Shown: piece by piece, positions 59,985 to 64,000 of the stretch
Layout: every line of letters starts with the position of its first letter
How positions within the stretch are numbered: the stretch's first letter is position 1
From: Patescibacteria group bacterium
Lineage (GTDB): Bacteria; Patescibacteriota; Patescibacteriia; 2-02-FULL-49-11
DNA: 64,000 nt
Reading direction: 5' to 3'
Assembly (NCBI GenBank): GCA_041645165.1
Contig: JBAZQN010000010.1
Location: forward strand, 102 to 64,101
The notes under the pieces: model-generated
Seen by the model: the letters and a program-made list of their open reading frames with translations, nothing else
What the model was told of the DNA's origin: nothing
The model's database searches: none
Program-made: the position numbers and the translations under genes

Positions 59985-60358
59985 ACGGTACGATTATTCC
60001 AGTTAGGCCTCTTTACAGTCGGCGCTAACCGCAGACCCGCCTGCCTACGCCAGTTGCGGGGAACGGTAGTATGCTTAATGTTAAAATCTTCCCTGACGTA
60101 CGGAGCGTTCCCGAGGAAAGGCAATGGCGGGCAGGTAAACGCAGATCGTCACGCCCGCCTGCCATAAACCTGTCCACGAGATGAGTGATATCTGAAAAGG
60201 TCGGTACCAACAACGTTATTCTGTTGAACCTTCAAGGAAGGCACTGGCGGGCAGGCTTGACCTTATCGCAGATAAACGCAGATATTCTTCTTACTCATTG
60301 TACGATATTCTCTTATGAGATAATAGAGTATAGAGTGATTGTTTATTGTTCTTAACCA

Positions 60359-60472: not shown

Positions 60473-61054
60473 ATGGCCGACGATATATCACAATTAAAAC
60501 AAGATATCATATTCACTGCCAACCTGCGAGGGCATGAGTTCACTTTCCATAGCGCGTACGGCCTGTTCAGCCCCAAAGAGATCGACCGCGGGTCTCTTTT
60601 GCTGATTGAAACCGTTGCCGTAAATCCTCACGACACCATCCTCGATGTCGGCTGCGGCTATGGCGCCATTGGGCTCACCCTGGCAATGCTCGCGCCTCAA
60701 GGCAGGGTCCACATGGTTGATAAAGATTTTGTCGCGGTTGAATACGCGAAGCAAAATGCCGCCCTCAATGGCATCGCCAACTGCGAAATTTATTTAAGCA
60801 ACGCGTTCAGCGCAGTGCCTGATATCAAATTCGACACCATCGTTTCTAACCTTCCCGCAAAAGCAGGCAATGAATTTTTTACTATCCTTTTCCATGACGC
60901 CAAAGCGCATCTGAAACCGGGAGGCAAGCTCTATGTCGTGACGCTCGCGGGAATGAAGAAATATATCAAAAGAAATTTCCAGGAACTATTCGGCAATTAC
61001 AAAAAACTACGCCAAGGCAAAACTCACGCCGTGTCGCTGGCAATACGTGAATAA
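60473..61054 (+). CDS. Class I SAM-dependent methyltransferase (small-domain, RsmC/RlmG-like)
   Basis: LDVGCGYGAIGLTLA. IVSNLPAKAG. Confidence 0.6.
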   Translation: MADDISQLKQDIIFTANLRGHEFTFHSAYGLFSPKEIDRGSLLLIETVAVNPHDTILDVGCGYGAIGLTLAMLAPQGRVHMVDKDFVAVEYAKQNAALNGIANCEIYLSNAFSAVPDIKFDTIVSNLPAKAGNEFFTILFHDAKAHLKPGGKLYVVTLAGMKKYIKRNFQELFGNYKKLRQGKTHAVSLAIRE

Positions 61055-61213
61055 GGACGGCTCGTCTGTAGATAAAGATACAAATTTTTATGATTGATAC
61101 CGCCAGAATAACATCAATGCCACCTAATGCCACAAGAAGCACGCTTTTAAATACAAAAAGGTCTATAGCATGTTAATGCGAGAAACCTCCGCATGGTGCG
61201 AAGGTAATAACAT

Positions 61214-61304
61214 GGTGGTCTATTCTTAAAGTAGTTCGGACGCATTTCGCCGCCTGCGGCGGCGAGAAAATCCCCCCGCAAAATTCCGAACCGAAATCCT
61301 GAAC
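61214..61304. repeat. Left 91-bp imperfect inverted repeat; outer 38 bp identical to the partner
   Basis: GGTGGTCTATTCTTAAAGTAGTTCGGACGCATTTCGCC...AAATTCCGAACCGAAATCCTGAAC. Reverse complement of 62575-62666. Confidence 0.7.
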
Positions 61305-61342
61305 TTTGACAATTTCAAGTTTTTCTTTGGCGGCAAATTCTT

Positions 61343-62425
61343 TTACCGCGTTAGGAAACTCCACCAAGGCTTCTTTACTGAAATGACATTTCCGGATTCA
61401 GCACTTACTTTGGTTTCGATCTGCATTGAAACAGGAATTACGAAAAGAAGTTTGGCTTGTTTTGTTCCCTTAACAGAATATATTGGTTGTTGAGATTCTT
61501 CTTTAAGTTCAATTGTGCTAACTTCGGTTCCCGCCGCCACTTTAGATGAGGCTTCTTCTGGCAAAATTTTGATTTCCTTATTTCCAGTTGATGTTTTAAG
61601 GGATAATTTATTCCCTTCAATAACAAGTTTTTCTGTTGTAACTGCAGTTGCTTTTTCAGATTGGAGAGATAGACCATTCGGGACTTTTTCTATGGAGACT
61701 GATTTTACGCCCGATTCTGAAGAAGAAATTTTTGCCTCAATGGGTTTTATTCCCTCTACTGGACAAGTTGTGGTATCTCCGGAACAAGTGCAGCCCACCG
61801 GACATTGTTTTCCCGGACAAGAATAAATTGGACAGCCGTTAGAATCTTTTTGAGCAGTAGGAATTCCACCAACGCAAGCGGTACAGGCGATGGGCGGTTC
61901 TACTGGACAAGTGCAAGTATCTCCGCTTTTCACGCAAGGAGCTTTACAAGATGGCACTGGACAAGTTGTGGTATCTCCGGAACAAGTGCAGCCCACCGGA
62001 CATTGTTTTCCCGGACAAGAATAAATTGGACAGCCGTTAGAATCTTTTTGAGCAGTAGGAATTCCACCAACGCAAGCGGTACAGGCGATGGGCGGTTCTA
62101 CTGGACAAGTGCAAGTATCTCCGCTTTTCACGCAAGGAGCTTTACAAGATGGCACTGGACAAGTTGTGGTATCTCCGGAACAAGTGCAGCCCACCGGACA
62201 TTGTTTTCCCGGACAAGAATAAATTGGACAGCCGTTAGAATCTTTTTGACCAGTAGGAATTCCACCAACGCAAGCGGTACAGGTAACTGAAGTTGTAATT
62301 TGCGTTGGATTTATTTCGATTGATTTAACAGAAGAAACGGTTGATTGAGCGTTTGCTGTTAGAACCAAAAACAAACCGCCTGACAATATCAGAGTTAGTA
62401 ATAAAATGTTTCGTTTCGCATTCAT
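61343..62425 (-). CDS. Secreted Cys-rich protein with three tandem 59-aa repeats
   Basis: Signal peptide. DNA tandem repeats of 177 bp across about 61790-62290. CxxC- and CP-rich units. Confidence 0.5.
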   Translation of the reverse strand: MNAKRNILLLTLILSGGLFLVLTANAQSTVSSVKSIEINPTQITTSVTCTACVGGIPTGQKDSNGCPIYSCPGKQCPVGCTCSGDTTTCPVPSCKAPCVKSGDTCTCPVEPPIACTACVGGIPTAQKDSNGCPIYSCPGKQCPVGCTCSGDTTTCPVPSCKAPCVKSGDTCTCPVEPPIACTACVGGIPTAQKDSNGCPIYSCPGKQCPVGCTCSGDTTTCPVEGIKPIEAKISSSESGVKSVSIEKVPNGLSLQSEKATAVTTEKLVIEGNKLSLKTSTGNKEIKILPEEASSKVAAGTEVSTIELKEESQQPIYSVKGTKQAKLLFVIPVSMQIETKVSAESGNVISVKKPWWSFLTR

Positions 62426-62574
62426 AGTTTTTGAAATTAAATGTTAATAATTTTTAGAAAAGTCGACTAACTTTTCTACTTATTTCTAATTAAAATAATA
62501 TGAAAAATTTTCTTTTCCCAAAATTAAAATACAGTTCGAGCCGATATTTTTATCAGGTTTTTTGGCAGTTTTTA

Positions 62575-62666
62575 AGTTCAGAATTTCGGTTCGGAATTTT
62601 TGGCCAGACCCTCGCCCCGCCCTGGCGGGGCGAAATGCGTCCGAACTACTTTAAGAATAGACCACC
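62575..62666. repeat. Right 91-bp inverted repeat
   Basis: Reverse complement of 61214-61304, with perfect 38-bp and 23-bp terminal blocks and a divergent centre. Confidence 0.7.
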
Positions 62667-62806
62667 AGACAGGAAATTGCAAGCAAGAGGCAGTCGCCTC
62701 CCCCGCATCAAGTGCGGGGTCGGCGACCAAATCATAAGGTTTTCTGGGCGAAAAAATCAGTTGGCGATTCTGCATTTTGGGAAAAGAAATTTTTAATCAA
62801 AACCAT

Positions 62807-64000
62807 ATGAAATACATACTTTACGCTCGCAAGAGCACCGAAGATGAGGACAGGCAGATTTTAAGCATTGAGGCCCAAGTCTTTGAATTAAAAGAATTTG
62901 CCGCCAAAGAAAAACTTGAAATTGTCGATCCGATTTTCGTCGAGACCAAAACTGCCAAAGAACCTGGGCGAATTAAATTCGCAGAAATGTTGTCATTGAT
63001 TGAAAGAGGGAAAGCAGAGGGGATACTTTCTTGGAATCCGGATAGATTAGCTCGTAATTCCGTTGATGGAGGGCGAGTAATTCACATGATAGATCGCGGC
63101 TTGATTAAATCATTGAAATTTCCAACATTTTGGTTTGAGCCAACACCGCAAGGACTTTTTATGCTCCAAATTGCTTTTGGTCAAAGTAAATATTATGTGG
63201 ATTCACTTCGAGAAAATGTAACTCGTGGAATGAGGCAGAAAGTAAGAAATGGAGTATGGCCAAGCAAAGCACCGCTCGGCTATCTCAACAATCCAAAAAC
63301 CAGAGGAATTGATGTTGATAGAGAAAAAGCACAAAAAGTGAAAAAGATTTTTGAACTCTACGCCACCAGAAATTACAATCTCCGCGAAATAGCCGAGTGG
63401 TGCAAACGGGTAAATCTCAAAAGCAATTTAGGCAACAGCATTTCAATTGGAAAAGTCCATGAGCTTTTACAAAACGTTTTCTACATCGGTCTTATGAAGT
63501 ATAAAGGCGAAATTCATGAGGCAACTCACGAGCCGCTAATTTCAAAGAAACTTTTTGATAAAGTGCAGGAAATTATGCGAGAAAAAGGCAAGCCGCAAAA
63601 AGTTAAGAAACATAATTTTGCTTTTCTCGGGTTTATGAAATGTCCTTGCTCGGCGGCGATAACAGCAGAAAAGAAAATTAAACCAAGTGGCAGAGAATAT
63701 GTGTATTATCGTTGCACAAAAAAGAAAGGGCCATGCCAAGAAAAACACTTTTTGCGACAGGAAGAATTATACGAACAGATTAAATCTTTTCTTCAAAAAG
63801 TTTCTTTGTCGAGCCACGACACAGAAAACGTTTTAGCCGAACTCGAAAAAGAAGAAATACAAACAAAAGAGCAAGCCAAAACAACTGTTCAAAATCTTAA
63901 AGTACAATTAGCTGAAATTGAAATAAGACTTGAAAAACTGCTCGACGTTTTTCTTAACGAGGTTATCTCTGTTGAAGATTACAAGGCGAGAAAAGAAAAA
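62807..64000 (+). CDS. Large serine recombinase (integrase/resolvase family), truncated at the window end
   Basis: Resolvase-type N-terminus YARKSTEDEDRQ...SIEAQ. Recombinase domain. Zinc ribbon CPCS...YYRCTKKKGPC. Coiled-coil. No stop before 64000. Confidence 0.75.
   Translation, partial: MKYILYARKSTEDEDRQILSIEAQVFELKEFAAKEKLEIVDPIFVETKTAKEPGRIKFAEMLSLIERGKAEGILSWNPDRLARNSVDGGRVIHMIDRGLIKSLKFPTFWFEPTPQGLFMLQIAFGQSKYYVDSLRENVTRGMRQKVRNGVWPSKAPLGYLNNPKTRGIDVDREKAQKVKKIFELYATRNYNLREIAEWCKRVNLKSNLGNSISIGKVHELLQNVFYIGLMKYKGEIHEATHEPLISKKLFDKVQEIMREKGKPQKVKKHNFAFLGFMKCPCSAAITAEKKIKPSGREYVYYRCTKKKGPCQEKHFLRQEELYEQIKSFLQKVSLSSHDTENVLAELEKEEIQTKEQAKTTVQNLKVQLAEIEIRLEKLLDVFLNEVISVEDYKARKEK

Follow-up and report, generated by a model that had tools for sequence, protein, structure and literature searches.

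What do two inverted repeats that enclose a single gene beside a large serine recombinase (LSR) gene amount to: a switch, a cassette, or the edge of something larger? We examined this question at the right end of a 64,000-nt stretch (hereafter the window) of contig JBAZQN010000010.1, from a Patescibacteria group bacterium. An earlier note on this DNA had described inverted repeats with identical 38-bp outer blocks around one gene for a secreted, cysteine-rich (Cys-rich) protein, and had suggested either an invertible or excisable surface-protein cassette or the end of a larger integrated element. We find that the feature in the window is the left two-thirds of a ~3.08-kb integrative element, in which the Cys-rich gene is an exchangeable single-gene cargo. 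That the whole is a compact integrative element inserted by its LSR at tRNA 3' ends, with the boundaries and attachment (att) sites assigned below, is in our judgement highly probable when these points are taken jointly.

The element and its tRNA-Val end

An identical recombinase (100%; P0001, 533 aa, from a Patescibacteria metagenome-assembled genome, MAG) led to contig L001, which agrees with the window with zero mismatches, apart from one fewer 198-bp repeat unit in the cargo gene, and shows what lies past position 64,000. The recombinase open reading frame (ORF) there passes through a segment that we call b and into a tRNA fragment, ending 408 nt past the window. Segment b ends in TGGTGG and runs straight into the reverse complement of the 3' part of a tRNA-Val gene (...GCCGCCCACCA), and the right end of the element lies here, about 294 nt past the window end. 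Beyond it L001 carries a transporter islet, an intact tRNA-Val(gac) 1.9 kb from the fragment, a tRNA-Ile, and then housekeeping genes including IF-2. The proposed larger integrated element thus gives way to one of only ~3.08 kb, bounded by the tRNA-Val fragment.

The repeats themselves, M_L and M_R, are real. Their outer arms (61213-61251 and 62629-62667) are 100% complementary over 39 nt, and a second block (61280-61306 and 62574-62600) matches over 27 nt at 96%. The 38-nt block has exactly two copies within the window, and 0 of 100 dinucleotide shuffles yielded one. Each M copy is non-coding and, over its ~94 nt, forms an imperfect hairpin; the centres, which the earlier note had called divergent hairpins, are wholly different in sequence, and both fold as GC hairpins. 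The cargo gene is the sole gene between the repeats, as had been reported.

On the plus strand the element reads: host flank, core TGGTGG, M; then X', cargo', Z', a' and Y'; then M', core' and b'; then Z, the recombinase gene, a and b; then the core and the tRNA-Val 3' fragment. Primes mark inverted copies, and the letters other than M denote segments of the recombinase locus (Table 1). This order contains three junctions, namely flank/TGGTGG/M at the left, b/TGGTGG/M on the minus strand in the interior, where b' and M_R together form it intact, and b/TGGTGG/tRNA' at the right. The set matches the expected attL, attP and attR, so the element spans 61213 to ~64294. The two repeats are accordingly better read, from sequence, as a putative attL plus an internal inverted attP copy, of which b' would be the P arm.

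The recombinase ORF starts 139 nt past the right repeat, close to the 140 bp or so given before, and its assignment as an LSR is borne out by three domain matches: PF00239 (Resolvase; E = 7.5e-20, residues 4-151), PF07508 (Recombinase; E = 3e-17) and, marginally, PF13408 (Zn_ribbon_recom; 25.5 bits against a cut-off of 25.3). The motif YARKS contains Ser10, the serine nucleophile of the resolvase-type catalytic domain. The nearest solved relative is the C-terminal domain of the A118 integrase, which is distant (E = 1e-6).

The recombinase gene also holds a 16-nt perfect inverted repeat (63543-63558 and 63793-63808; CAAAGAAACTTTTTGA and TCAAAAAGTTTCTTTG). Across 56 homologous genes the two arms, which coincide with peaks of synonymous-site conservation, hardly vary and show no compensatory changes, so covariation is uninformative here. 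The motif CAAAGAA is shared by X, Y and this intragenic repeat.

The neighbourhood of the tRNA in L001 has features of its own. The 1.9-kb segment between the tRNA-Val and its displaced 3' fragment (L001 11489-13406), which holds a sodium:solute symporter gene and a short helix-turn-helix gene, looks like an older islet at the same tRNA; an insertion of ~38 nt interrupts the T-loop of the displaced fragment. A small GIY-YIG-like ORF (L001 13484-13783; MFTVYVLKGLKNGKRYIGSTG...) stands immediately upstream of tRNA-Val(gac), between two copies of 17 nt from the 5' end of that tRNA (GGGCGGCTAGCTCACTT), an arrangement that would suit insertion in or beside the tRNA gene.

Probable attachment sites and layout across the family

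Scans with the recombinase protein gave at least 443 confirmed matches from species-representative genomes and at least 457 from metagenome contigs, and we examined 80 genome loci and 80 metagenome loci. Nearly all are from Patescibacteria (by record title). The layout M(+), X(-), cargo(-), Z(-), a(-), Y(-), M(-), b(-), followed by Z(+), recombinase, a(+), b(+) and tRNA(-), was found in 89 of the 101 loci with enough upstream sequence, and more than 30 genome loci, extending to 54% amino-acid identity, carry the full set of six inverted-repeat pairs. The copies of M and of b agree at 98-100% inside any one locus and at ~80% from locus to locus, and the short patches likewise co-vary within loci. 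When the repeat was sought elsewhere, M was found only at its two fixed positions next to the genes of this recombinase family. Our literature searches found no description of the family, which does not prove it undescribed.

The right end of these elements is a tRNA end. In 52/59 loci b gives way, with no gap, to the 3' end of a minus-strand tRNA, and these tRNAs cover 26 isoacceptors. Left flanks are unrelated between loci, with zero information content up to the GTG of the core. Within each locus the two ends and the internal junction have one core sequence in common; it differs between element lineages and co-varies with the adjacent tRNA 3' end (TGGTGG, TGGTGC, TGGCTCCG, TGGCGG), and the element supplies the discriminator and CCA bases of the tRNA. 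Judging from these alignments, only the tRNA half of attB appears to be conserved and specified, and the crossover would fall within GTGG of the core.

The spacing of the half-sites follows a known rule. In serine integrases the motif bound by the zinc-ribbon domain lies 5 bp nearer the centre in attB than in attP (PMC3783163). A TCGAAC-like motif in M is exactly 5 bp further from the core than the TCGAAC of the tRNA T-loop in 30/32 loci. This offset matches the attP/attB rule (PMC3783163), so that the 38-nt outer block would be a P' half-site mimicking the tRNA T-arm at attP spacing. The putative P arm is the end of the recombinase ORF, its last ~100 nt (b). Because this arm lies inside the ORF, the C-terminal tail and the stop codon of the enzyme would depend on the sequence to which the element is joined. 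The C-termini of homologues are tails encoded by tRNA antisense sequence or, in 6/60, tails encoded by M, the ORF reading from b into M.

We therefore have a model in outline, which stays conditional at each step. The LSR would recombine attP (b/M) with the 3' (discriminator/CCA) end of a tRNA gene, giving attL (M) and attR (b/tRNA). For the window the predicted empty site is GCGAAGGTAATAACA/TGGTGG/GCGGCAGAGGG, and the predicted circle or tandem junction is ...CAATTTCCTGTC/TGGTGG/TCTATTCTTAAAG, preceded by a-b. Occasional recombination that involves the internal attP and the repeated modules might yield tandem arrays, cassette swaps and rearranged isomers.

The earlier inventory of repeats was right about the outer pair and overlooked the others. 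Around the cargo stand inverted copies of five segments of the recombinase locus (X', Y', Z', a' and b'), all on the minus strand. The cargo cassette is bounded on its 3' side by X', which overlaps the stop codon of the cargo gene, and the a region resembles the outer block of M. In the cargo sense the order is M-Y-a-Z-cargo-X-M', which can be read as a circular permutation of the recombinase unit with its N-terminal part replaced by cargo and its body deleted.

Table 1. Features of the element that lie in the window. Positions are those of the window.
Feature	Position	Strand	Description
M_L	61213..61306	+	element left end, putative attL: core TGGTGG, outer conserved block, GC hairpin, inner block
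M_L core TGGTGG	61213-61218		reverse complement of tRNA ...CCACCA end
M_L outer conserved block			putative P' half-site carrying GTTCGGAC
X'	61308..61345	-	perfect 38/38-nt inverted copy of recombinase codons 28-40 (X)
Cargo gene	61343..62425	-	360-aa secreted Cys-rich repeat protein
Tandem repeat	61758..62283	.	198-bp period, 2.7 copies, within cargo gene
Z'	62504-62524	-	inverted copy of recombinase 5' untranslated region (UTR)
a'	62526-62552	-	inverted copy of codons ~450-458, 3' part of recombinase gene
Y'	62554-62572	-	inverted copy of recombinase codons 46-52
M_R	62574..62667	-	putative P' arm of internal inverted attP copy
Promoter-like motif	62654..62682	-	-35 TTGCAA 62677-62682; 17-nt spacer; -10 TATTCT 62654-62659
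b'	62662..62774	-	113 nt, 100%, inverted copy of recombinase 3' end beyond window
Z	62774..62794	+	5' UTR element just upstream of recombinase start codon
Large serine recombinase gene	62807..64000	+	398 codons in window; full ORF 533 aa
X	62889-62926		within recombinase ORF
Y	62948-62966		within recombinase ORF

Several other roles for these patches were considered and rejected. If X and X' were inversion sites that swap the recombinase N-terminus, Ser10 would be lost and the enzyme dead, and that state is absent from all loci. A single nested RNA or single-stranded DNA fold containing every repeat pair is not available, since the pairs cross, which would give a pseudoknot. Nor do X and Y fit as pseudo-attB sites behind the M/X' and Y'/M' junctions, where M is joined by its inner end and not by the core. 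The idea that Z is a ribosome-binding region shared by cargo and recombinase found partial backing: 14/67 loci have the cargo start 30-39 nt from a, and in the others the distance varies up to 180 nt. A structured-RNA role for M was dropped too, its folds being not clearly better than those of shuffles (z -0.5 to -2.2). A permissive-threshold Rfam scan of 60900-63000 gave chance-level matches only, and a terminator scan detected no intrinsic terminator.

The internal junction carries a promoter-like motif, with its -35 element in b and its -10 element in M, that points through M, Y, a and Z into the cargo. TTG stands exactly 17 nt upstream of TATNNT across this junction in 89/90 loci, a count in which the -10 element is partly fixed by the TATNNT search pattern; the commonest forms are TTGCAA or TTGACT with TATTCT. 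We put at about even the chance that the junction is a sigma-70-like promoter for the cargo, in which case it would supply transcription through M-Y-a-Z into that gene, with a predicted start near 62646 on the minus strand. Integration splits the motif at attL and attR and leaves only the internal copy intact, which would explain why an internal copy is kept. The window's own motif agrees with the consensus at 8/12 positions, under the threshold of a promoter scan, and the conserved junction bases may instead be recombinase contacts.

Other observations weigh, like these last points, against the integration model or parts of it. All sequences are metagenome assemblies, in which repeats may mislead assemblers, and the target tRNA in the window's own case is a fragment that ARAGORN did not call. 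No empty target site was present among all the fetched loci and no closed circular contig was found, so that we infer excision and do not observe it. The element, holding only the recombinase and one cargo gene, offers no candidate for a directionality-factor gene; small or host-encoded factors could still serve. The P arm (the end of b) has no obvious dyad symmetry with the P' arm. Finally, a circle with two equivalent attP copies predicts two integration isomers, and one dominates (89/101 loci), which implies that the copies are non-equivalent or that the mobile form differs from the one assumed.

Two further observations concern the ends of these elements. At some loci (L011 ~7460, L030 and L144 ~1880) a second type of P'-like arm, TATTTTACCAA(A/G)(T/C)(C/T)CG(A/C)AC CTATTTTC, follows the end of the recombinase gene and replaces the tRNA or the usual M. 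In addition, many public contigs begin or end in b' or M' just upstream of the recombinase (L003, L014, L021, L028, L038, L062, L079 and others), which makes the inverted repeats of the element a frequent assembly break point in Patescibacteria MAGs.

Cargo exchange, rearrangement and rival explanations

The cargo at this position is unrelated in other loci. It is usually a single gene of diverse function, and the families across loci include DUF218, a radical SAM enzyme, a methyltransferase, NAD(P)HX dehydratase, SDR, MOSC, subtilase and racemase, as well as many secreted or membrane proteins. Exchange can be seen in a pair of loci (L082 and L089) whose recombinase regions are 98.5-99% identical, where the cargo is replaced exactly between X' and Z', by a pilin-like gene in L082 and a subtilase gene in L089. 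The subtilase cassette of L089 sits, flipped, on the opposite side of the recombinase in L082. Co-oriented arrays of two or three cassettes occur in L024, L077, L039 and L104.

Mobility of a whole unit is seen in L085 and L096, which share 2588 nt at 100% identity (L085 36-2623 and L096 2886-5473) in different contexts, the shared unit breaking exactly at the start of M and the end of b. In L096 an unrelated flank stands on one side and a tRNA-Ala on the other; in L085 the unit lies between the end of a b, which gives a b/M junction, and a different M. Such b/M junctions were seen directly in L085 and in the 6/60 homologous ORFs mentioned above, and could be tandem copies. In L004, L023 and L144 the b' upstream of the recombinase gene adjoins the 3' end of a plus-strand tRNA, as would be expected from recombination of the internal attP with a second tRNA. 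A recombinase-less mini-unit is present in L084, which carries the same element as L085 and L096 (99.8-100% identical) with the cassette in the opposite orientation. Its left junction differs as well (tRNA-Ile/b'/Z), so this is no plain inversion between the two repeats. One orientation is dominant across the family, and rare rearranged isomers exist.

How else might these repeats be read? They could belong to a miniature inverted-repeat transposable element (MITE) or REP-like family unrelated to the recombinase, an alternative that the earlier note itself had raised and that the hairpin form and non-coding nature of M would suit. Its contradiction comes from the presence of just two copies in 64 kb, from more than 100 loci with the same two positions relative to the recombinase gene and cores that match the adjacent tRNA end, and from the lack of target-site duplications; we give it almost no credence. 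Equally hard to credit is a large prophage or integrative and conjugative element beyond the window with the cassette at its edge. The recombinase does run off the window and G+C falls across the region, from 0.49 to 0.38-0.43, but in L001 the ORF ends 408 nt past the window and is followed by the tRNA-Val fragment, the 1.9-kb islet, tRNAs and housekeeping genes, and a tRNA gene follows immediately in 52/59 relatives. Phase variation has more in its favour. Here the recombinase would flip the M...M' segment so that the cargo faces the junction promoter (ON) or lies antisense to it (OFF), as one might expect of inverted repeats around a surface-protein gene beside a serine recombinase; the promoter-like motif lies just outside the flippable segment, so that a flip would silence the cargo, and the cassette is indeed opposite in L084 compared with L085 and L096. 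Against this, the cassette has the same orientation in 89/101 loci, none of the 12 exceptions is a simple M/M' flip, and the one flipped case is otherwise rearranged at its left junction. The window's M copies are also not homogenised, their centres being wholly different, and serine integrases normally pair attP with attB and not two identical half-site arrays (PMC3783163). We consider such a switch improbable, and routine phase variation unlikely. What stands of the invertible or excisable cassette is that it is part of a recombinase-driven mobile unit whose repeats are functionally tied to the adjacent LSR; it is the inversion that the loci do little to favour.

A further reading keeps the integrative element and asks more of it. 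The locus might be an integron-like platform built on an LSR, with a recombinase unit between P arms (b'...b) and cassettes between P' arms (M...M'), an arrangement that we regard as possible and rather doubtful. Any P/P' junction would dock on a tRNA end, and cassettes would be inserted or exchanged beside the recombinase and expressed from the junction promoter; this, too, we hold only tentatively. All four combinations of recombinase-unit ends do exist: M'/b'...b/tRNA, tRNA/b'...b/tRNA (L004), M'/b'...b/M (L082, L083, L085) and tRNA/b'...b/M (L144, L084). The co-oriented arrays, the mini-unit of L084, the swapping of cargo between near-identical recombinases and the diverse, mostly single-gene cargo all point the same way. 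Yet most loci have exactly one cassette, the array junctions resemble microhomology events or have no M at all (L039), no free cassette circle was seen, no known mechanism captures new genes between X and Z, and the exchange could be ordinary homologous recombination between co-resident elements. In its fullest form, which we offer as a speculation with perhaps a minority of the odds, this would be a self-mobile platform in which the junction serves as cassette promoter and spare attP, and accessory sites (X, Y, a and Z) render the two junction copies functionally unequal. Shuffling of cassettes, array formation and tRNA-to-tRNA rearrangements could conceivably proceed from the spare attP with no directionality factor, the whole docking on the universal T-arm and acceptor end. 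The more probable reading is a compact LSR-inserted element at a tRNA 3' end.

Relation to known systems, and the cargo protein

The enzyme is a member of the LSR family, its site geometry follows the known rule, and the generic tRNA-end target and conserved internal inverted attP are unusual. Phage-type large serine integrases (A118/LI, phiC31, Bxb1) have the same resolvase, recombinase and zinc-ribbon domains and the same half-site architecture, with the attP outer motif 5 bp further out than in attB. In contrast to those systems, the carrier here is 2.5-3.1 kb and has a single cargo gene, no phage genes and no candidate for a directionality factor, and insertion is at the 3' end of many tRNA species generically, the second half-site being unconserved. 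The P arm also lies inside the recombinase ORF, and an inverted intact attP copy is kept internally.

Integrons likewise place a recombinase gene beside single-gene cassettes of diverse function that are bounded by imperfect-hairpin sites, with a recombinase-side promoter reading into co-oriented cassettes (here a promoter-like motif only). They use the tyrosine recombinase IntI and folding of single-stranded attC, whereas an LSR is present here, the whole platform is mobile and tRNA-targeted, and there is usually one cassette. Tn4451 (TnpX), Tn5397 (TndX), SCCmec (CcrAB) and IS607 are small to medium elements moved by serine recombinases via circular forms, and SCC elements insert at a gene 3' end and accumulate in tandem. 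The recombinase subfamilies and targets of that group are different, and we know of none among them with an internal inverted copy of its junction or with generic tRNA-end targeting.

Serine DNA invertases (Hin, Gin) and shufflons resemble this locus in having an inverted-repeat-bounded segment beside a serine recombinase gene, and the conserved elements in the 5' coding region of the recombinase recall the position of the Hin enhancer. Those enzymes are small and depend on Fis and an enhancer, and their segments are commonly found both ways round in populations, whereas one orientation dominates here. In the circle junction promoters of IS911 and IS30-type elements, -35 and -10 boxes on opposite element ends are assembled on joining; here the assembled copy is permanent and internal, and it points at the cargo and not at the recombinase.

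The tycheposons of Prochlorococcus are likewise small cargo-carrying integrative elements at tRNA genes, sometimes in arrays (10.1101/2020.12.28.424599). Of these, 910/937 use tyrosine recombinases and the remainder an LSR, many carry replication genes, and the text of that paper makes no mention of an internal inverted attP or of recombinase-gene patches (10.1101/2020.12.28.424599). By our comparison, tycheposons, integrons, SCC elements, IS junction promoters and DNA invertases each appear to have one trait in common with this element and none has the whole design. Literature searches found no precedent for a conserved internal inverted attP together with patches of the recombinase gene.

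Should the integration model be right, this LSR family would read the T-loop and acceptor end, a motif that all tRNAs share, with one conserved half-site being enough. Serine integrases are prized for each recognising one defined site, and the family would then offer a natural case of relaxed, structure-anchored targeting and a clean test of the half-site spacing model. The genomes of Patescibacteria (the candidate phyla radiation, CPR) are tiny, few of their mobile elements have been described, and genetic tools for them are almost lacking. As the match counts given above indicate, the elements occur widely in the group. Their cargo, which comprises surface proteins, enzymes and proteases, comes as single genes; the elements may thus rank among the main routes by which accessory genes are exchanged in the group, and may offer a ready-made integration tool.

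The cargo protein of the window has an N-terminus that looks signal-peptide-like by eye and no Pfam match, and exact-protein look-ups for it and for the neighbouring methyltransferase gave no match. The tandem repeats previously reported in its gene are present, with a period of 198 bp (66 aa) instead of the 177 bp stated. The corresponding region of L001 (9150-9477, against 61758-62283 in the window) has one copy fewer, giving 294 aa in place of 360 aa, which is either real copy-number variation or assembly collapse. In another Patescibacteria contig (L166 2425-4951), a cargo homologue with 77% identity lies immediately downstream of bAvd and a reverse transcriptase, a diversity-generating-retroelement pair. 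Another Cys-rich homologue, in L167, has an ordinary chromosomal context.

Outside the element, the intergenic region upstream of the methyltransferase gene in the window (60118-60283) contains two short direct-repeat pairs, AAGGCA(A/C)TGGCGGGCAGG and GCAG(G/A)TAAACGCAGAT, with spacings of 120 and 137 nt.

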